Source: a virus. Taken from it: DNA of 27,205 nucleotides. The translations under genes were made by a program, and so were the position numbers. Position 1 is the first letter of the stretch; the number at the start of each line of letters is the position of its first letter. Below the pieces are notes generated by a model that had not been told where the DNA came from, made no database searches, and saw only the letters and a list, made by a program, of their open reading frames with translations. The stretch lies in the UHGV virus genome UHGV-0267347; one strand, 5' to 3'. Positions 1-19,197 of the stretch are shown here, in pieces.

Positions 1-301
1 AACTCTGCAGATTACTGTCGACATCAGTGCCGCCATGCGATTTAGGGATGATGTGGTCAACGGTCTTCGCCTCACGCACCACACCAGCACGCAGACATAA
101 CTGACACAGGCCTTTGTCACGCTTCAGGACACGCGCGCGGATACTGTCCCACTTCGAACCGTAGCCGCGCTGATGACGGGATTGTCCAGGTTTGTATTGC
201 TTCCAGCCTTCGCTTTTGTGGCTTTCGCAGTAGCCTGAAGGGTCTGTGGTTGTAGAGCGGCAGCTGCGAACACGGCAGGCTTTTGGTGTTCGTGGTGGCA
301 T
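1..301 (-). CDS. HNH endonuclease, N-terminal ~100 codons; 3' end runs off the left edge of the window
   Basis: Own translation of the minus strand from ATG at 301-299 (not in the ORF track because it is truncated by the window edge): MPPRTPKACRVRSCRSTTTDPSGYCESHKSEGWKQYKPGQSRHQRGYGSKWDSIRARVLKRDKGLCQLCLRAGVVREAKTVDHIIPKSHGGTDVDSNLQS. Cys-rich knuckle followed by DH..P...GG....N, typical of HNH nucleases. Purine-rich SD (GAGGGGAG) upstream. Position downstream of the lysis genes fits a terminase-associated HNH. Confidence 0.8.
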   Translation of the reverse strand, partial: MPPRTPKACRVRSCRSTTTDPSGYCESHKSEGWKQYKPGQSRHQRGYGSKWDSIRARVLKRDKGLCQLCLRAGVVREAKTVDHIIPKSHGGTDVDSNLQS

Positions 302-430
302 GATAGGCTCCCCTCGTAAATGAGGTGATTCACAAAATGAAACAAAAAAAGTACTGGTAGTACCAGCATCCTAAATTACAGATTCCATAACATGCTCAAT
401 GCTGCTAATGGCAAGAAAGGATGTTTTTAA

Positions 431-643
431 ATGACAAGCGATAATCTGGACTCCAAGCCCACAATTGAAGATGTTGATTTCAAGCATTTGATCTGCGTCG
501 CAGGAGGAATCATCGAGGATCTAAAAGGCCCATTTATATTCAAGGCTCCAGAAAATATTAGGCGATTACTTAATCATAAGGGAGTGAATGAAATAAGTAA
601 TCTCTCTCAAAAATTTAATGCAGATTCTCCATCTTGCTATTAG
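431..643 (+). CDS. hypothetical small protein (70 aa) in AT-rich moron island
   Basis: ORF track only; AT-rich, opposite strand to the late operon; no motif recognised. Confidence 0.35.
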   Translation: MTSDNLDSKPTIEDVDFKHLICVAGGIIEDLKGPFIFKAPENIRRLLNHKGVNEISNLSQKFNADSPSCY

Positions 644-719
644 AGTTCAGCAGCAGGCACTCAGTGAATGCCTACTGTAACGACTACTCCAATAATAATG
701 GATGCTCTATGGATACATA

Positions 720-1313
720 CTAAAATATGGATGTTAAATAATTGCTAAGTCTTTTTGCATTCTTACAGAATGCCAAAGCATCTTCCTGAGTACATAAGAG
801 CTTTCCTTGGGATATAGGCTTAATAGACTCTCCTGTTTTTTCATAAAGCTTAACAATGTCACTAGAAATTTTGTTTGCAGATTGGACATTTTTCAAGGCA
901 GCGATACCTGAAGCCCGCCCTAAAGATGTCCCGTTGATCTCAATCCCCTTTTTAGATGCAAGCGTTATAGCGGTTAACTCCAATTCGCGCCAAGCTGAAA
1001 GTACAGCAACATTAGGCTGAGTACTAGCAAGACTCTCAAAAATATTGAAATTCTCAATGAGTTGTGTCGGCAGGACAAGATTTGTTCCAGGTAAATTTTT
1101 AATAACCTCTATACTTTTAGATTCTATTTCAAACATTTCTTTTTTAAATTTAATCTCATAGTCACCTAGCTTAACTGTATTAAGACGACCTAAAACCATT
1201 ATTATTTCTTTTTTTAAAGTAAAAAAGACAATCAAACAAGCAAGAACAATAAATAAAACATTGCCTTCTTTAAGAAGCATCTCTATCCAGTAAAAAAAAG
1301 TATAGTCCGTCAT
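720..1313 (-). CDS. hypothetical membrane-anchored protein (197 aa)
   Basis: ORF with N-terminal hydrophobic stretch (NVLFIVLACLIVFFTL) and hydrophilic remainder; strongly AT-rich codon usage; lies directly downstream of the spanins on the same strand. Confidence 0.55.
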   Translation of the reverse strand: MTDYTFFYWIEMLLKEGNVLFIVLACLIVFFTLKKEIIMVLGRLNTVKLGDYEIKFKKEMFEIESKSIEVIKNLPGTNLVLPTQLIENFNIFESLASTQPNVAVLSAWRELELTAITLASKKGIEINGTSLGRASGIAALKNVQSANKISSDIVKLYEKTGESIKPISQGKLLCTQEDALAFCKNAKRLSNYLTSIF

Positions 1314-1507
1314 TTTCAGTTCTCAAATAGAAATAGTTCTCTCAGTATACGTATATTGAACTCTGCTATCACTTAGTTTATACAACGTTATGCTGGCCAC
1401 ACACTCGTAGTTGACGTGCATCTGACTACTCGCTATTTTAGGTATTTGAGGCATCTTCATTAATGCTGAACAGGCACTTCTTGCTGCGGTCTTTCCACTT
1501 TACTGCT

Positions 1508-1765
1508 TCATGGCTCACTCTTCTCTGCTTCAATTTTACGAATATCAGCCTTATCCCTATTACAGGCAGCCAGCACTGACAGCAGGCTCACGTTTAAATC
1601 CAGACTATCTCTGTAAGTCAGCGGATCAGGAATAGCTGGCTGTGGGGTTTCAGCGGTCAGGTTCGCCGGTAGTGGTACCGCCGGAACTGGCACGTAAATT
1701 GTCCGCGTACCGGCGCAGCCGCTCAGTTGCACGAGCAGGAACAAGACGGGAAGCGCAATCATCAT
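1508..1765 (-). CDS. o-spanin (Rz1-like outer-membrane lipoprotein); start inferred at internal Met
   Basis: Signal peptide MMIALPVLFLLVQLSGC with lipobox LSGC, then a Pro-rich mature part (PVPAVPLPANLTAETPQPAIPDP). Starts inside the Rz-like gene in another frame and extends beyond it. Confidence 0.7.
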   Translation of the reverse strand: MMIALPVLFLLVQLSGCAGTRTIYVPVPAVPLPANLTAETPQPAIPDPLTYRDSLDLNVSLLSVLAACNRDKADIRKIEAEKSEP

Positions 1766-2042
1766 TCTCAACAACCACTTTGATATCTTCCTGGGTTCTC
1801 TGTGACTCCAGTGCGATCTGCTGTTTTGCATGCTGGTTAGCCTCCAGAACTGTATTTACGATTTGTATTGATTGCAGGACGTTATTGGTAATGGCAGTTG
1901 CTGATTCAGCATTTCGTACAGCCTCATCAGCACGTTTCTTTTCGTACTGATATTTGCTGTAGTAGTGGTTGGCCGACCAGATGAAAGAACCAATGACAGT
2001 AACGAAGAAACCAGCGATAACCAGCTTATAGCTCAGCTTCAT
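1650..2042 (-). CDS. Rz: i-spanin (Rz-like)
   Basis: N-terminal TM helix (LVIAGFFVTVIGSFIWSANHYY, compare lambda Rz WAVNHY), coiled-coil-like remainder; immediately downstream of the endolysin with a 17-bp overlap. Confidence 0.75.
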   Translation of the reverse strand: MKLSYKLVIAGFFVTVIGSFIWSANHYYSKYQYEKKRADEAVRNAESATAITNNVLQSIQIVNTVLEANQHAKQQIALESQRTQEDIKVVVENDDCASRLVPARATERLRRYADNLRASSGGTTTGEPDR

Positions 2043-2502
2043 TTACCACCCCACCAGCCTCTTTAAACCGGGCAATCAAATCACCGATTTTATGTTCATA
2101 CTGACCGTAACCTGCACCGGGTAACGACGCCCAGATATTGCTGCAACGGTCGATAGCCTGACGAATATCACCGCGATCAATCATCGGTAAAGCGCCACGC
2201 TCTTTAATCTGTTGCAGTGCCACAGCGTCCTGGCTTTTGGGGGAGAAGTTTTTCAGAGCAAGCTGCTTACGGTAGGCATCCCACCAGCGTGAAAGAAGCT
2301 GATAACGTCCGGCGGCTGTTGATTTGAGTTTGGGGTTTAGCGTGATAAGTTTGCGAGGGTGATCAGAGTAATCAGTAAACAGTTCGCCGCCAACAATAAC
2401 ATCATAACCGTGATTACGTGTCGGTTGTCGCCCGTTATCCGTTCCTTCTGACCATGCCACCATATCGAGGAAAGCTTTACGCTGGGAATTTAGTACCTGC
2501 AT
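2026..2502 (-). CDS. R: endolysin, lambda R-type lytic transglycosylase
   Basis: 158 aa, near-identical over its length to lambda R as recalled (NSQRKAFLDMVAWSEGTDNGRQPTRNHGYDVIVGGELFTDYSDHPRK...ALQQIKERGALPMIDRGDIRQAIDRCSNIWASLPGAGYGQ). Confidence 0.95.
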   Translation of the reverse strand: MQVLNSQRKAFLDMVAWSEGTDNGRQPTRNHGYDVIVGGELFTDYSDHPRKLITLNPKLKSTAAGRYQLLSRWWDAYRKQLALKNFSPKSQDAVALQQIKERGALPMIDRGDIRQAIDRCSNIWASLPGAGYGQYEHKIGDLIARFKEAGGVVNEAEL

Positions 2503-2505
2503 AAA

Positions 2506-2832
2506 TTACTCCTTAGAGCCACCAAACTTATTACCGATTACTCTCATTGCAGCCCCACGAATAGCATCAACACCGATCAGCCCCACCCCACCACCAATGG
2601 CAACAGATAGTGATTTAGGCCATCCGACATACTCAAGAGCGGATGCAAAAGTCAGCGTCAGAGCGCCACAGAGTAGAATTTCGAGTGTTTTTCGCTTCCA
2701 GCCGCCACCACCGCCAAAATAGGCAATACGTAAACCAGCCATAACAATCGACATAATCACTGCGCCCAGCGGTGTGTCTCCACGCCACCAGCTCTGGACC
2801 AACTCCAGCCAGGTATTTGGGTTATGAGGCAT
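2506..2832 (-). CDS. holin (lambda S-like class I, three predicted TM helices)
   Basis: 108 aa, three hydrophobic segments, Gly-rich loop (AYFGGGGGW, compare lambda S YLRGRYNGG) and charged C-terminus; sits directly upstream of the endolysin. Confidence 0.8.
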   Translation of the reverse strand: MPHNPNTWLELVQSWWRGDTPLGAVIMSIVMAGLRIAYFGGGGGWKRKTLEILLCGALTLTFASALEYVGWPKSLSVAIGGGVGLIGVDAIRGAAMRVIGNKFGGSKE

Positions 2833-2983
2833 TTGTAGTTATCTCTCACCTCGCCGATACAGGAGGTGCAAATTGAGGGAGTACCACGAACCGCAAACCA
2901 GAAGCGGAAACGTAAAAGAAGCCGAGCCAATGGATAAGTACTAGATAGACCAAGCCCAACGAATACCAAGGCCCAGAAATGAC

Positions 2984-3006
2984 AAAACCCGCTCGACGGC
3001 GGGTTT
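2984..3006 (-). terminator. tR'-like intrinsic terminator hairpin upstream of the holin
   Basis: cccgc-tcgacg-gcggg stem-loop flanked by AAAA on the plus strand and TTT on the other side; on the minus strand this is a hairpin followed by a U-run, about 150 nt before the holin start, as for lambda pR'-tR'-S. Confidence 0.4.
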
Positions 3007-3178
3007 AAGCTGCGTGGCGAAGTAACCACTCTTAACACAGTAATCTAGAAAATGCGGACCGCGTTAGTGATTTTTATCTGTTTTTCCATTATTTTTTTGC
3101 CACACAGCTTAAAACGAAAAATAAAGCAGGCGTTGCCAAACCTCACGGTGACAGTTGGATTAGAATGAGGACATACTT

Positions 3179-4198
3179 TTGGATAAGTTTGATGAGATTC
3201 ATGTAGACATTGAATCTGAGCAGCAAGCCTTCGATTTGCTTGAAAGCTATCTTGATGGTTATGGTTTACCTGACAGTTTAAGTTTCAACGGATGGCCAAA
3301 CCTTACCATCAGATTAACCGGTGAAAAATTCAACAGATCGCTAACACCTTCAGTTATGAAGGGATTTGTTGAAATGCAAGCTCAAATCAACAAATCATAT
3401 GCCCTTGCCAAGTACGGTGTCCCTGACGTCCGCAAACTGACCAAAGAAGAACTTGATGCCCTAGAAATAGAAGTTACGGTAGAACAGGGTTCTTCAATAG
3501 TAGAAATCAATATTGATGGCTTTTTAACCAAACTCACACAGGAACTTGTTGGTAAAATGAACGCAACTGAGATCATGTTTACTGTTCTCGGCGCAGCAGT
3601 CATCTGGGGCGGAGTAACAGTATTTAAACGGTTCTTGGACAACCGCAAAGATATTCGCCTTGCAGAAATTGCTAAGGATGGAGAGAAAGAACATCTCCGG
3701 ACTATGCAGATCATGAGCGAACAAGAAACTAAACGCCTGCGGGTTATTTCAGAAATGATTGCGGAAAAACCACTTCTCGATAACATGGACCGTATGTCGT
3801 ATGACGCTAAAACCCAAATGGTCAAATCCTTTGTGCGTTCAGATAACGCTCAAATTGATGGCGTTACTATTGATTCTGAAATGGCGAAAGAGTTGGTTAC
3901 GAATGCTCGTAGACGTTCATCAGAAATGAGGATTGATGGTATTTACCGAATTGAAGAAGTCAATAATACTGACCCAGAGAGTTTCAAAGTTAAGGTCCGA
4001 CGCGTAGATACCGACCAACGTCTAACCTGCGTAGTTCAGGATGTTTTCCTTGATGAATCCGGAAACAAAGAAGCATTGCAGCGAGCTGAGTGGGAAAGAA
4101 AGCCTGTACATTTGAGCATTAACGCAAAACACGTCGATGGTGACATTAAGTCAGCAGTAATTCTCTATGTTCGAGATGTGGAACAAAAGCCCGAGTAA
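3179..4198 (+). CDS. hypothetical protein (339 aa) with one central TM helix; moron between Q and the lysis cassette
   Basis: Long ORF on the strand opposite to the late operon, TTG start with a GAGGA SD-like sequence 8 nt upstream; central hydrophobic segment IMFTVLGAAVIWGGVTVF; lower GC than flanking phage genes; no motif recognised. Confidence 0.65.
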   Translation: MDKFDEIHVDIESEQQAFDLLESYLDGYGLPDSLSFNGWPNLTIRLTGEKFNRSLTPSVMKGFVEMQAQINKSYALAKYGVPDVRKLTKEELDALEIEVTVEQGSSIVEINIDGFLTKLTQELVGKMNATEIMFTVLGAAVIWGGVTVFKRFLDNRKDIRLAEIAKDGEKEHLRTMQIMSEQETKRLRVISEMIAEKPLLDNMDRMSYDAKTQMVKSFVRSDNAQIDGVTIDSEMAKELVTNARRRSSEMRIDGIYRIEEVNNTDPESFKVKVRRVDTDQRLTCVVQDVFLDESGNKEALQRAEWERKPVHLSINAKHVDGDIKSAVILYVRDVEQKPE

Positions 4199-4212
4199 TC
4201 GGGCTTCAATAA

Positions 4213-4605
4213 TCAATCTTTAACTTCGGGGTCCATCTCTAGACTAATTTCCAACATCGATAGGCAGCCATCAATAAACCCCTCAGCCATCTGTATCTCA
4301 ATGCGTATTAGTTTCTCATCCTTTTTACGAGCCTTGGCGAGCTTTCTTTTAGAGATACCGTATAGATAATGGGCAACAAGAAGCGAATGTTCGTCCGGCC
4401 TTTTTTGCCTTAGACGAGCAAGACAACCTTCAATAATTAATGCATCACTATCTGAACATGCCTGACGTGTTTTGCTTGTATAGGGAAGAAGCCCTTTAAA
4501 CCCAGCAGCTATAGGAGAATAGTCTACTCCTGAACTATCACTCACCGCCCATGCTCCCCAACGCTCCAGAACCATTTGAATATCACGCATCAACTTTCTC
4601 CACAA
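4213..4605 (-). CDS. Q: late-gene antiterminator Q (Phage_antitermQ / QuuD-like); alternative start at 4590
   Basis: MRDIQMVLERWGAWA...IAAGFKGL...CLARL...AEGFIDGCLSML matches the recalled N-terminus and Cys/His pattern of E. coli prophage Q-type antiterminators. Confidence 0.85.
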   Translation of the reverse strand: MWRKLMRDIQMVLERWGAWAVSDSSGVDYSPIAAGFKGLLPYTSKTRQACSDSDALIIEGCLARLRQKRPDEHSLLVAHYLYGISKRKLAKARKKDEKLIRIEIQMAEGFIDGCLSMLEISLEMDPEVKD

Positions 4606-9576: not shown

Positions 9577-10181
9577 GCGTTAGTTTCTCCACAGTCACGA
9601 CACGCCACGGCGCCCGGAGCTGCACACTCGCGGGCGTCATTACTTTCTGAAATGCAAAAGATTTTGTAGACCAGTGCTGCATGCTCCTGCAGCTTCGAAA
9701 TTGAGAGATACAGCTCGTCGTTAATTGCTGTCTTCTCATGCGGTTCCACCACACCGTCTTCGATTGCCGAACGAATCTGTCTGGAATAACTGCCAATCTG
9801 TTCAATGACTTCCAGCAGGCGCTGGTTAATATCGGCGTTGTCCACATCCTCGACGTCAGGAAGAGACACAAAGACGCCATTTGCAGACTGCGCCACAGCG
9901 TCAGCAATGAAGTGAGTTCCACCAGCACGTTGCAAAATCATTGCCCATCCCAGCGGGAAAATCTGATCGCCATCGGCACGAAGGCGGTTAAATAATGCGT
10001 TTTCTGTTACATCCAGCCAGTCAGCTGCTTCAGCGTAACCACCCGGCAACGCTGCGATAGTTTTTCTGACAGCTTTCACGTACCACTCAGGCTGTTTTTC
10101 TACTTTCCAGTGATGCTTACCCACGGTTAGCCTCATCGTTCTGTGGTTTCTGTTAATCGATTTATCCATTAGATTTTTCAT
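9573..10181 (-). CDS. CII/YdaT-like regulatory protein
   Basis: Start chosen at ATG 10181 (MKNLMDKS...), just past the Cro-like stop; position directly after cro and before the replication genes is that of cII/ydaT-type regulators; no catalytic motif. Confidence 0.55.
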
Positions 10182-10362
10182 AAAGCTCAGGTTTAAATGG
10201 CAACCGTCCGCAAGTTCTATATGCAGCTTCTGCTGCACGTCCTTTTGGAATTAACTGGCCCGGACGGTTTCGCCACTGATAAACGGCTTCAGTTGTTATG
10301 CCAAAAAAAGCAGCAACTTTCTCAATACTGCCGAAGTAGCTTTCGATATCGTCAGTTGTCAT
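10162..10362 (-). CDS. cro: Cro-like HTH protein (YdaS-like)
   Basis: 66 aa, HTH with YQW...LIP pattern; divergent from the CI gene across an operator region. Confidence 0.75.
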   Translation of the reverse strand: MTTDDIESYFGSIEKVAAFFGITTEAVYQWRNRPGQLIPKGRAAEAAYRTCGRLPFKPELYEKSNG

Positions 10363-10459
10363 ACGCCCTCCAAACTAAGTTTTATTAGATGCTAATTACA
10401 AATCTATCTTTGGTCAATAAAAACTAAGATTACTTAGCAATTCAAGAAATGGTGCTCCT
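10363..10459. promoter_or_regulatory. OR-like divergent promoter/operator region
   Basis: Two 14-bp palindromes built on CTAAG half-sites: CTAAGTTTTATTAG (10375-10388) and CTAAGATTACTTAG (10424-10437), between divergent cro-like and cI starts. Confidence 0.5.
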
Positions 10460-11086
10460 ATGGAAACGGTTGGTCAGCGTATAAAAGCTCTGAGAAGAGT
10501 TACCGGAACGTCCCAGAAAGAATTGGGTAAATTTTGTGGAGTAAGCGACGTTGCTGTGGGGTACTGGGAGAAAGACATCAATACCCCTGGTGGGGAGGCA
10601 CTTTCGAAATTAGCGAAGTTCTTCAATACGTCAATAGATTACATTCTTTATGGTGCTGAGTTTGAAGGCAAACTCGTCACAAACATGCGCAGAGTTCCTG
10701 TAATATCGTGGGTTCAGGCTGGGCAGTTTACTGAGTGCAGGGCAGCAGAAGTGTTTAGTGAAGTGGACAAGTGGGTAGATACATCATTAAAGATTGGTGA
10801 TAACTCATTTGCATTAGAGGTTAAAGGTGACTCCATGACTAACCCTAATGGCCTCCCAACAATACCAGAAGGCGCAACAGTGATTGTAGATCCAGATGCA
10901 GAACCTCGTCATGGAAAAATAGTCATCGCTCGACTTGATGGAACAAACGAAGCTACAGTAAAAAAATTAGTCATCGATGGCCCTCAAAAGTTTTTAGTGC
11001 CATTAAATCCTCGGTATCCCAACATCCCTATCAATGGTAATTGCCTTATCATTGGTGTAGTCAAAGGAGTTCAATACGAACTCTAA
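10460..11086 (+). CDS. cI: CI-type repressor (XRE HTH + S24 LexA-like peptidase)
   Basis: N-terminal HTH (QKELGKFCGVSDVAVGYWEKD), C-terminal GDSM serine motif (VKGDSMTNP) and downstream Lys (VKKLVIDG), characteristic of autocleaving phage repressors. Confidence 0.9.
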   Translation: METVGQRIKALRRVTGTSQKELGKFCGVSDVAVGYWEKDINTPGGEALSKLAKFFNTSIDYILYGAEFEGKLVTNMRRVPVISWVQAGQFTECRAAEVFSEVDKWVDTSLKIGDNSFALEVKGDSMTNPNGLPTIPEGATVIVDPDAEPRHGKIVIARLDGTNEATVKKLVIDGPQKFLVPLNPRYPNIPINGNCLIIGVVKGVQYEL

Positions 11087-18129: not shown

Positions 18130-18649
18130 ACATTTTGTCTAGCTGATAACGCGCTGCCACTAATGAAACTCCGCATGCCTCAGCAACATCCTCAGCCGTC
18201 ATACCTTTTAAAATACTGGCATGCATAGCTGGCACTAATAACTCACCACTAAAACATTTAGCTTGCCATTCACTACTCTCAAAAGGGCGGATTTTTACCC
18301 CTGGGGCAGAACGAGCAAATGCGATGTTCCTGTGCATAAGAAGATGACCCAGTTCATGCGCGGCAGTCATCCTATCTCGCCCTACCCCATTCAAAGCGCC
18401 TTCGTAAATGTCTTCGCGCAGAATCAATAAATGTTCCTGTGGGTATGTAAGACCATGCGTCTCTCCCATTTCTTTCATACCACCAATGTGGAACTCAAAA
18501 TCCGGGATCAACTGAGGCAATGCGAACTCAATTACCTCCATTACAGGGAATTTAAGCCCAGTAATACCAAATGCGCTCCGCAGAGATCTGACGATAGAAC
18601 GTATTGATTCACGATTCTGCGGAGGTACACGATAATCTTGTCCGCTCAA
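18128..18649 (-). CDS. ImmA/IrrE-family zinc metallopeptidase (COG2856-like)
   Basis: HEXXH motif in AAHELGHLLMH; 173 aa; immediately downstream of an XRE HTH gene. Confidence 0.85.
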   Translation of the reverse strand: MSGQDYRVPPQNRESIRSIVRSLRSAFGITGLKFPVMEVIEFALPQLIPDFEFHIGGMKEMGETHGLTYPQEHLLILREDIYEGALNGVGRDRMTAAHELGHLLMHRNIAFARSAPGVKIRPFESSEWQAKCFSGELLVPAMHASILKGMTAEDVAEACGVSLVAARYQLDKM

Positions 18650-18657
18650 GCCGCCTC

Positions 18658-19017
18658 CTACTGCTGTTTTCGATTCAAAATCTGTCGTAAATTACGGAAG
18701 TCTTCTTCATTTAACTCATCAAAACTACGAGCGAACGCAATTGCGACTTCACGAGCGTGGCCATTCTTACCTGACAAGCTGATCTCTACTGACTGCTGAG
18801 AGTCACGAGCTGCACTGATAAGCTTTTCTTTTTGTTTTTCATCCGCATTAAAATAGCTAATGATGCTATCAAGCACGGGCTTAGTGACCGCCCTTTTACC
18901 AGTTTCGATCGCTGAAAGATAAGACGAGGTCATGCCCATAGCCTCAGCCATGCTTTTAAGCGTAAGCCCCAAGTCTATGCGCATTTTTCTTACTGTCTTA
19001 CCAAACGGCGTTAACAT
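18658..19017 (-). CDS. XRE-family HTH transcriptional regulator
   Basis: N-terminal HTH (KMRIDLGLTLKSMAEAMGMTSSYLSAIETGKR); 119 aa; paired with the metallopeptidase gene. Confidence 0.85.
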   Translation of the reverse strand: MLTPFGKTVRKMRIDLGLTLKSMAEAMGMTSSYLSAIETGKRAVTKPVLDSIISYFNADEKQKEKLISAARDSQQSVEISLSGKNGHAREVAIAFARSFDELNEEDFRNLRQILNRKQQ

Positions 19018-19197
19018 AGTTGCTTCTCCAGTGTGTCAAAGACCTTCAGTACTTCAGGTCTCATTTTAAGTTAACACTCCACAGACATGAAATCAACAAA
19101 ATTCTGTTAATTTTTTTATCTTGCTTAGTTTATGAGTTTACATCTTATGTTGATAGAACTGTTGGTTGGTGAAGAATCATGGGGAAATGAGTCGTAA

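Follow-up and report, generated by a model that had tools for sequence, protein, structure and literature searches.

What kind of protein is encoded by the AT-rich island located behind the spanin genes of the virus genome UHGV-0267347, and what could it do for the phage that carries it? The 27,205 nucleotides of this sequence, referred to below as the window, begin inside an SfII-like lambdoid prophage of Escherichia coli. The island extends from the start codon of an HNH endonuclease gene to the stop codon of the o-spanin gene Rz1 and contains two convergent genes, coding for proteins of 197 and 70 amino acids (aa). An original prediction, made from the sequence alone, described it as recently acquired cargo with a membrane-anchored protein, possibly a surface or exclusion factor. 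The present analysis goes beyond this description on two points: as judged from profile comparisons, the 197-aa protein is a HEPN/DUF4145 derivative devoid of the catalytic residues, and the 70-aa open reading frame (ORF) is a separately conserved module. The coordinates of the features are collected in Table 1.

The relationship of the 197-aa protein to HEPN domains became apparent at the profile level. Comparison of a profile of its clade to 1.84 billion cluster representatives retrieved 265 proteins at E<=1e-3, mostly 180-200 aa in length, with alignments running from the membrane helix through to the C-terminus. Examples are P0013 (E 1.4e-17) and P0014 (E 5e-13), whose alignments cover the transmembrane helix, the stalk and the head. 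In these relatives, the helix contains 'AWP' and the head 'LRxLRNxAAH'. The Pfam family DUF4145 (PF13643) was matched by 35 out of 61 of them (E<=0.01), nearly all other matches being to HEPN-clan families, and P0013 scores 24.4 bits against this family for a cut-off of 23.1. The 197-aa protein itself remains below the PF13643 gathering threshold. The profile matches nevertheless place it in the HEPN fold and among the descendants of the family combining a WP-containing transmembrane helix with DUF4145 (WP-TM + DUF4145), listed first among three membrane-associated HEPN groups by Anantharaman, Makarova, Burroughs, Koonin and Aravind (2013; PMC3710099, section 15). Stimulus-dependent RNA cleavage at the membrane was predicted for this family in the same work and its WP pair was called strictly conserved.

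Both signatures of the family have been lost in the clade of the 197-aa protein. In an alignment of 142 sequences, W is present in 132 and P in 131 at the positions where the query displays I22 and V23, and the R, N and H of the RNxxxH motif (125, 113 and 111 sequences, respectively) are replaced by I164, K165 and Q169. The WP pair is absent from the query and from all seven clade relatives, and the three motif positions are occupied across the clade by I/V, K and variable residues. A single neighbor-joining clade unites the query with its six homologues and P0011, the next relative, and both signatures are missing throughout it. The Rx4-6H motif, which in a catalytic HEPN RNase stands at the start of the last core helix, is thus not found in the 197-aa protein, which contains no histidine at all. 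Other hallmarks are kept, namely W108 (136/142), E112 (134/142) and a 'RASGIA' loop common to a subgroup that includes proteins with the canonical motif; the motif losses therefore look derived. Intermediate relatives display partly eroded motifs, such as 'LRKLAIND' in P0022. Given the loss of RNxxxH and the lack of histidine, it is very unlikely that the 197-aa protein acts as a HEPN RNase, and it most likely works without cutting RNA.

The canonical form, by comparison, is widespread. A scan of GTDB species representatives for 'PRAAIxEAWxx[VIL]E', written by hand as a degenerate DNA pattern, yielded 79 loci across many phyla, 78 of which encode a family member; no member of the clade of the 197-aa protein was found among these representatives. 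Since no conserved neighboring gene was found around the 78 canonical loci, the canonical family can be regarded as a solo gene. In E. coli, it was detected in 20 of 5426 complete genomes, on nine D6-like plasmids and in 11 chromosomes, there within a tRNA-Thr island. Orf24 of the phage-plasmid Escherichia phage D6 (YP_009914701; L108:3501-4058) directly follows the anti-restriction genes darA/ddrA/ddrB, and a chromosomal copy (L126:4988-5572) lies in a tRNA-Thr island with an integrase and HigA. A chromosomal member is annotated in E. coli as 'DUF4145 domain-containing protein' (WP_225394361). None of these 20 genomes also belongs to the 20 that carry the island. The gene for P0022, the relative with the eroded motif (L101:7001-7567), is located 68 bp downstream of BREX pglZ/brxL on the same strand; an AAA_15/AAA_21 ATPase and a Fic protein are also encoded upstream, in what is a defense-island context. 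PADLOC returned only weak HEPN-motif matches for canonical relatives, and one weak match to PD-T7-4.

The comparison of homologues indicates that the 197-aa gene is real and under purifying selection. A collection of 5.8 billion proteins contained only seven clusters of this clade, its own E. coli cluster (88 sequences) and six diverged ones displaying 47-69% identity. Five of these six homologues are full-length and all five keep the N-terminal hydrophobic segment, the sixth (P0007) being truncated at its N-terminus. Across the seven sequences, with identities down to 47%, 51 positions are invariant. The ratio of non-synonymous to synonymous substitution rates (dN/dS) is 0.155 relative to the L005 homologue; most other pairs are saturated at dS, with dN of 0.35-0.48. 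Among 13 near-identical E. coli copies, the coding sequence shows five synonymous and four conservative or non-synonymous differences. Competing starts exist at Met12, chosen in two genomes by the Prokaryotic Genome Annotation Pipeline (PGAP), and at Met39, where the family phrog_30030 begins; as F7, W9 and E11 are retained in the full-length homologues, the 197-aa start is favored over both. A T8 homopolymer (minus strand, window 1292-1299) occupies codons 5-8 of the gene. It has suffered a 1-nt deletion in one of the 13 copies, in which the PGAP start is Met12 and the membrane helix is still kept. The tract could be a slippage-prone source of on/off or N-terminal variation.

Homologues of the 197-aa protein are found in several genetic contexts. 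P0004 (L002) is encoded after a Phage_lysozyme endolysin and a Phage_lysis Rz, before a Nu1 small terminase, and P0005 (L003) after a holin, a GH19 endolysin and a DUF2570 Rz. P0003 (L005) belongs to a non-lysis region akin to the DinI-containing parts of Klebsiella phages. These contexts suggest that the gene itself is mobile cargo of enterobacterial lambdoid prophages, for which the post-spanin position is preferred and not obligate. The GC content of the gene and of its homologues amounts to 0.34-0.36 in all contexts, that of the neighbors to 0.49-0.53; low GC is therefore a trait of the gene family and not a clock. This leaves the claim of recent acquisition only half standing, since the cargo nature holds and the recency cannot be read from composition. 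No match was obtained by tblastn among 50,697 phage records, IMG/VR contained only near-identical E. coli copies, and PHROGs returned only the unnamed family phrog_30030. Neither a sequence search of PDB nor a fold search of BFVD produced a significant match, and PADLOC-DB v2 gave no match to defense-protein models at E<=1 for either island protein. No papers were found by searching the literature with protein accessions and PHROG ids.

The architecture of the 197-aa protein is simple. The hydrophobic helix reported by the original prediction was found at residues 19-33, the sole strongly hydrophobic segment of the protein, and it is conserved in the five full-length homologues, none of which matches a known lysis-accessory protein. 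Only one of the 17 residues preceding the helix is lysine or arginine, compared to four of the 18 that follow it, and the homologues display the same bias, which predicts an N-terminus outside and a C-terminus inside the cell. An AlphaFold2 model built from a seven-sequence alignment reached a mean predicted local distance difference test score (pLDDT) of 78, with values of 76-92 over residues 81-197. It shows a continuous helix from residue 17 to 72, comprising the membrane helix and a stalk, followed by a helical bundle (83-196), in agreement with the C-terminal four-helix HEPN domain characteristic of the family. We infer from these elements a bitopic inner-membrane protein with a cytoplasmic globular domain. 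Three cysteines are invariant in the clade, C26 within the helix, C174 and C183. The first two are confined to it, C183 also occurs in two distant members, and the columns of C174 and C183 are occupied by I/L/V in the canonical family.

The island qualifies as exchangeable cargo, a module of the moron type that occupies a hypervariable slot in the SfII-like lambdoid prophages of E. coli. A moron, in the sense of Hendrix and Juhala, is an additional transcription unit placed between conserved phage genes. Presence or absence between the same flanking genes was readily observed: the HNH-Rz1 gap is reduced to 26 bp in strain YZ22MPE54 (L008), which therefore represents the empty site, and other relatives contain different genes (L009, L010, L109, H41/H42; Table 1). 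Of the 5426 complete E. coli genomes, 1134 were matched by a 2.1-kb query covering the two flanks, whereas the island was present in 20. In the sampled relatives having both flanks, the distance between these varies, with at least nine values ranging from 933 bp (empty) to 2069 bp, and the slot is empty in some and filled by at least five unrelated AT-rich cargos in others. The island is also found beside another spanin allele (L096, L097). The 184-aa cargo protein of L010 is homologous (26% identity, E 5.5e-8) to a 148-aa transmembrane protein (L005:2683-3129, plus strand) encoded directly after the L005 homologue of the 197-aa protein. It was considered as a HEPN relative and ruled out by an hhalign probability of 0.3%. 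Small membrane-anchored helical proteins seemingly recur as cargo of the slot.

The base composition of the island is equally distinct, as the original prediction had claimed. In 200-bp windows, GC falls from 0.56-0.58 (positions 1-300) to 0.25-0.43 (~300-1500) and rises to 0.50-0.55 in the spanins. With a GC of 0.363, compared to 0.49-0.56 in its flanks, the island is the minimum among all 1206-bp windows of the 27-kb sequence (median 0.466, maximum 0.597). The GC at third codon positions is 0.29 in the 197-aa coding sequence, 0.45-0.48 in the holin, endolysin and Rz genes and 0.56 in HNH. Apart from the island and the Q-holin interval, GC is lowest at ~10150-11000 and ~18400-19150 of the window (~0.41). 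The borders of the island are sharp: BLAST alignments with three related E. coli prophages stop exactly at position 301 on one side and at 1499-1570 on the other. As no direct or inverted repeats were found flanking the island, it looks like a mosaic module swapped by recombination in the conserved flanks and not like a transposable unit. An Rfam search of positions 1-3300 gave no match.

The second gene of the island, present and convergent as originally described, is a separate cargo module common to two island types. Used alone, the 70-aa ORF retrieved only near-identical E. coli matches. A sensitive DNA search identified five E. coli genomes in which a 69%-identical stretch occupies the same slot within a different island. 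There, a 69-aa ORF (L109:2446-2655) encodes a protein 59% identical to the 70-aa protein, with the same start context, the same 'PSCY-stop' end and length differences that are all in-frame. The dN/dS between the two alleles is 0.159 in frame and ~1.5 in both shifted frames, and the differences are distributed 17/16/35 over the three codon positions; this frame specificity and this bias identify the ORF as a genuine protein-coding gene. In both island types, the small gene is proximal to HNH, oriented away from it and followed by a conserved hairpin, and the gene beyond differs. The second type contains a Cys- and His-rich 113-aa protein at that place (L109:2828-3169, plus strand; no Pfam match). 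The 70-aa ORF was also considered as a conserved partner of the 197-aa gene, which was rejected owing to its absence from L002-L007. The gene was annotated by PGAP/RefSeq in none of 25 genomes, and only two alleles were present in IMG/VR and the JGI metagenome collection. Pfam and NCBIfam scans of its product gave no match, and AlphaFold2 reached a pLDDT of 67 from the single sequence without alignment.

As to the expression of the 197-aa gene, the terminator scan found no terminator-like site between Rz1 and the gene; since the late transcript must in addition reach HNH and the terminase, the 197-aa gene is expected to be transcribed late. The leader preceding it varies more among the 13 copies than any other part of the island and contains two candidate sigma-70 sites, at 1372-1344 and 1326-1299, with nine and 10 of 12 consensus matches, a count no higher than in shuffles. 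The gene may also be expressed from its own promoter in the lysogen. A near-palindrome in the leader includes 'AGTTCAATA', also present in front of two homologues; the palindrome may represent an operator or have arisen by chance in such AT-rich sequence. A search for a promoter conserved among the homologues revealed only the short 'AGTTCAATA' block in common, and the alignment of their upstream regions is too poor for any claim. Between the convergent genes, a strong stem-loop is predicted at -24.1 kcal/mol in the minus-strand RNA (z -4.2, equalled by none of 200 shuffles) and at -14.8 kcal/mol (z -2.2) in the plus-strand RNA. It has no U-tract and is kept after the small gene in both island types, the equivalent L109 hairpin reaching -21.5 kcal/mol (z -3.3). 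A second, terminator-like hairpin is located within the 129-bp divergent region separating HNH from the 70-aa gene.

Table 1. Features of the island, its flanking genes and alternative cargos of the same slot (window coordinates unless preceded by a locus).
Feature	Position	Strand	Basis or remark
HNH endonuclease, 5' part, left flank	1-301	-	PF01844, E 1.6e-9
AT-rich cargo island, HNH start codon to Rz1 stop codon	302-1507		GC, homology borders, empty site
Terminator-like hairpin + U7, just upstream of HNH	342-368	-	terminator scan
Gene for 70-aa acidic helical protein, convergent with 197-aa gene	431-643	+	phrog_22590; AAGGA 9 nt before ATG
Strong stem-loop between convergent genes	651-677		8 nt after 70-aa stop, 42 nt after 197-aa stop
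Gene for 197-aa membrane-tethered predicted pseudo-HEPN protein	720-1313	-	ORF, homologues, selection
Predicted HEPN-fold (DUF4145-like) four-helix domain, codons 83-197	723-1067	-	
Degenerate remnant of HEPN Rx4H catalytic motif, codons 161-170 (GESIKPISQG)	804-833	-	alignment of 142 members
Single transmembrane helix, codons 19-33	1215-1259	-	VLFIVLACLIVFFTL, mean Kyte-Doolittle 3.25
AT-rich leader, Rz1 to 197-aa gene	1314-1507	-	candidate sigma-70 promoters, near-palindrome
18-bp near-palindrome	1342-1359	-	TCAATATACGTATACTGA; overlaps candidate -10 hexamer upstream of 197-aa gene
o-spanin Rz1/LysC, right flank	1508-1831	-	PF23793, E 1.5e-16; PGAP name lysC
i-spanin Rz	1650-2042	-	130-aa ORF
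Endolysin	2026-2502	-	GH24/GH104 glycoside hydrolase by PGAP in related genomes
Holin	2506-2832	-	PF05106
Antiterminator Q	4213-4605	-	PF06530
Alternative cargo, L010 (E. coli KE58): 184-aa protein with N-terminal transmembrane helix	L010:650-1204	-	GC 0.33
Alternative cargo, L009: two genes on opposite strand			GC 0.38
Alternative cargo, H41/H42: GrlR-family regulator			
Alternative cargo, L109: small gene + Cys-rich 113-aa protein			

The surrounding genes follow the order Q, holin, endolysin, Rz, Rz1, island and HNH on the minus strand, and the identification of the flanks as spanin and HNH genes was supported by Pfam. In the nearest complete genome, 99.7% identical over the island, the genes after HNH code for a P27-family small terminase, the large terminase, portal, protease and capsid. 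The Rz1/LysC ORF is embedded in and overlaps Rz, whose 130-aa product matches DUF2570 weakly (E 2.5e-5, slightly below the Pfam cut-off); a Pfam scan of the window endolysin gave no match. The RefSeq annotation of TUM12357 contains lysC and lacks the Rz i-spanin coding sequence (L001:7401-7793, equivalent to window 1650-2042), although the ORF is intact. The Q-holin interval (2833-4212) constitutes a second cargo slot. It holds on the opposite strand a 339-aa ORF (3179-4198, plus strand; phrog_6191, GC 0.42) with a central hydrophobic segment at residues ~129-150, as well as a tR'-like hairpin at 3006-2985 on the minus strand. The otherwise near-identical prophage of TUM12357 contains a DUF6731 protein and a hypothetical protein in this slot.

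What could a HEPN protein without catalytic residues do from this position? The reading preferred here, tentatively and with somewhat less than even confidence, is a role in phage-phage conflict, either the exclusion of superinfecting phages or the modulation of defense in the lysogen. The protein would expose a short N-terminus outside the cell, cross the membrane once (residues 19-33) and continue in the cytoplasm as a long helical stalk (34-72) bearing the HEPN-fold head (83-197). It descends from the family of predicted membrane-tethered RNases, of which the small enterobacterial-prophage clade has lost the WP signature and RNxxxH; the result would be a non-catalytic, probably dimeric binding module tethered at the inner face of the inner membrane. 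It would be made at least late in lytic growth, on the late transcript crossing the gene toward HNH and the terminase, and possibly also in the lysogen from its own promoter. A conflict role is favored because the HEPN superfamily is overwhelmingly employed in conflict systems (PMC3710099), the prophage-encoded solo HEPN proteins HepS and Tha as well as RAZR being defense proteins. It is also favored because P0022 adjoins BREX, because canonical members reside on temperate phages and integrative islands, and because the slot holds many alternative small cargos. The exclusion factor of the original prediction is a reasonable guess.

A number of observations weigh against this proposal. The conflict role would follow from guilt by association, and the known HEPN defense proteins require the very residues missing here, so that the 197-aa protein cannot act as they do. 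No experimental work was found in the literature on the WP-TM + DUF4145 family, canonical or not, and Pfam (even at E<=0.1), NCBIfam and PADLOC scans of the 197-aa protein gave no match. The structural model relies on seven sequences only, with its mean pLDDT of 78, and the three clade-specific cysteines could reflect an extracytoplasmic location. In three of four independent contexts the gene lies on the late strand directly after the spanins, an arrangement that would suit a late or lysis-related role too. The counts of promoter-like and terminator-like sites do not exceed those of shuffled sequence, and the hairpin at 342-368 is weak (-8.4 kcal/mol, z -1.5).

The observation on gene position leads to a first alternative, in which a membrane protein co-transcribed with the lysis genes would tune lysis timing or envelope disruption, for instance via the cytoplasmic face of the holin. 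The inner-membrane anchor, the lack of a terminator-like site after Rz1 and the location directly after the spanins on the same strand, in the window and at two homologue loci whose endolysins and spanins are of other types, are all compatible with such an accessory. Most related prophages nevertheless lyse without the 197-aa gene, their slot being empty or filled with unrelated cargo, and the L005 homologue sits in a non-lysis, DinI-like region. The gene stands out from the lysis cassette by its base composition wherever it occurs, Pfam and PHROGs revealed no resemblance to known antiholins or lysis regulators, and the ancestry lies in a defense-type superfamily. A lysis accessory is therefore considered unlikely.

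A second alternative involves the canonical family members. A catalytically dead HEPN protein made late could heterodimerize with a canonical membrane-tethered DUF4145 HEPN RNase of the host or of a mobile genetic element, and protect the late mRNAs. As HEPN enzymes have composite active sites formed across the dimer (PMC13017515, PMC13043305), a dead partner would poison the enzyme. The architecture is the same and the homology to canonical members clear, only the signature residues being gone. Late expression is expected for a gene on the same strand behind the lysis genes without an intervening terminator, and canonical members are in circulation in both E. coli and Salmonella, carried by D6-like phage-plasmids and islands of the chromosome. 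The identity to canonical members is nevertheless only ~20-30%, low for specific heterodimerization, and the target is rare, the canonical D6-type genes being found in 20 of 5426 E. coli genomes, none of which carries the island. The transmembrane WP, a likely interaction or signaling element, was lost too, and the literature search found no precedent. An anti-defense decoy thus looks improbable. The broader idea of a temperate phage employing a dead, membrane-tethered HEPN copy either as a dominant-negative decoy against canonical HEPN defenses or as a non-nucleolytic exclusion device is likewise given little credence.

The surface factor of the original prediction fared less well than its exclusion factor. 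In this third alternative, the 197-aa protein would be an extracytoplasmic lipoprotein or a secreted surface or exclusion factor of the Bor/Cor/Llp kind, lipidated at C26 and exposing in the periplasm a dead HEPN domain stabilized by a C174-C183 disulfide. The presence of the three clade-invariant cysteines coincides with the loss of the cytoplasmic RNase motif, two positions of the hydrophobic core that may be in contact are taken by C174 and C183, C26 is preceded by A at -1 and L/I/G at -2, and lambda harbors the lipoprotein gene bor in the equivalent slot. On the other hand, a PS51257-type lipobox pattern fails in six out of six clade members, and no Pfam Bor match was obtained for the 197-aa protein. 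The hydrophobic run before the cysteine comprises 7-8 residues only and continues for 6-7 residues beyond it. The N-terminal net charge is 0 or below in the clade and the K/R-rich stretch follows the helix, the reverse of a signal peptide. Moreover, the segment corresponds by homology to the transmembrane helix found in a family that must have its catalytic domain in the cytoplasm. The distribution of charges and the family relationship thus place the globular domain in the cytoplasm, and an extracytoplasmic protein appears quite doubtful.

A nuclease or toxin active through other residues (e.g. R109/E110/E112, R133 or K165), acting as an abortive-infection effector like HepS, Tha or RAZR, is very improbable. 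The HEPN fold and these conserved charged residues are present, and some HEPN families may compensate with a differently placed residue (Anantharaman et al.), but all three motif positions are replaced across the clade, the query contains no histidine, and either single substitution (R or H) abolishes defense in RAZR. A decaying remnant without current function, which the lost signatures, the T8 deletion in one of 13 copies and the truncated P0007 might suggest, is hardly credible and largely refuted by the 51 invariant positions at identities down to 47%, the dN/dS of 0.155 (dS being saturated in most other pairs), the intact full-length ORFs in several genera-level contexts and the gain of new invariant residues.

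Should the protein be such a dominant-negative decoy or non-nucleolytic exclusion device, a defense enzyme would have been exapted into an inhibitor or binder through the loss of WP and RNxxxH and the gain of three cysteines. A coupling of a membrane signal to RNA cleavage had been predicted in 2013 for the parent family, and the clade, as a natural dead-enzyme version still under purifying selection, offers a handle on the role of fold and tether apart from catalysis, whether in binding, sensing or antagonism. If the 197-aa protein is an ordinary exclusion factor, the gain for the catalogue of prophage cargo is modest. The spanin-HNH junction of SfII-like prophages is a hot spot for numerous small AT-rich cargos, several of which are membrane proteins, and a place to seek E. 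coli exclusion and defense genes. The 70-aa gene is conserved and was overlooked by standard annotation in all 25 RefSeq carriers.

Among known systems, the closest is the WP-TM + DUF4145 family itself. The 197-aa protein shares with it a length of ~185-200 aa, a short N-terminus, one transmembrane helix, a K/R-rich stalk containing a 'RLxSxKxG..E..F' block, and a HEPN four-helix head with an 'AWRExE' helix. Both are solo genes on mobile elements, temperate coliphages included, and the profile-level homology is significant. The clade differs by the absence of WP (I22 V23) and of RNxxxH (I164 K165 ... Q169), by its three invariant cysteines, by scores below the Pfam DUF4145 threshold and by a distribution so far restricted to enterobacterial lambdoid prophages. 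Since two family-defining features and the catalytic HEPN hallmark are lacking, it was not regarded as a full member but as a divergent and probably non-catalytic variant. RAZR (PD-T7-4), the one characterized DUF4145 HEPN, is an abortive-infection RNase combining a zinc finger and a DUF4145 HEPN domain, in which alanine at R146 or H154 abolishes defense (PMC13017515). It shares the domain type and is a single-gene system of the E. coli accessory genome, but it is soluble with an N-terminal zinc ribbon, whereas the 197-aa protein is membrane-anchored, without zinc ribbon and without both RAZR catalytic residues. HepS of the Gifsy-1 prophage and Tha of Staphylococcus aureus prophages are solo HEPN abortive-infection proteins as well (PMC13043305, PMC11087260). 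Unlike the 197-aa protein, they are soluble RNases triggered by tail proteins and have kept the canonical Rx4-6H. The non-catalytic HEPN folds of sacsin (3o10) and MtlR/YggD (3brj, 6kcr, 3c8g), which act in chaperone and sugar-regulation contexts, display neither sequence relationship nor membrane anchor, and the likeness shows only that a dead HEPN fold can bind.

HK97 gp15, P22 SieA and T4 Imm are small inner-membrane superinfection-exclusion proteins of temperate and lytic coliphages, non-essential phage cargo that protects the cell against other phages. None of them is known to contain a HEPN fold or to be similar in sequence or fold to the 197-aa protein; the analogy is functional and concerns the proposed role only. 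The position of the island is best compared to that of lambda bor, as the original prediction had pointed out. Bor lies 31 bp after Rz, right behind the spanins, and both loci consist of AT-rich extra genes missing from close relatives. Bor is an outer-membrane lipoprotein encoded on the opposite strand, whereas the 197-aa protein is unrelated in sequence, encoded on the late strand and oriented, as predicted, toward the cytoplasm. The 197-aa protein works like none of the characterized HEPN defense proteins, and the island, as a genome feature, is typical moron-type cargo in a known kind of slot.

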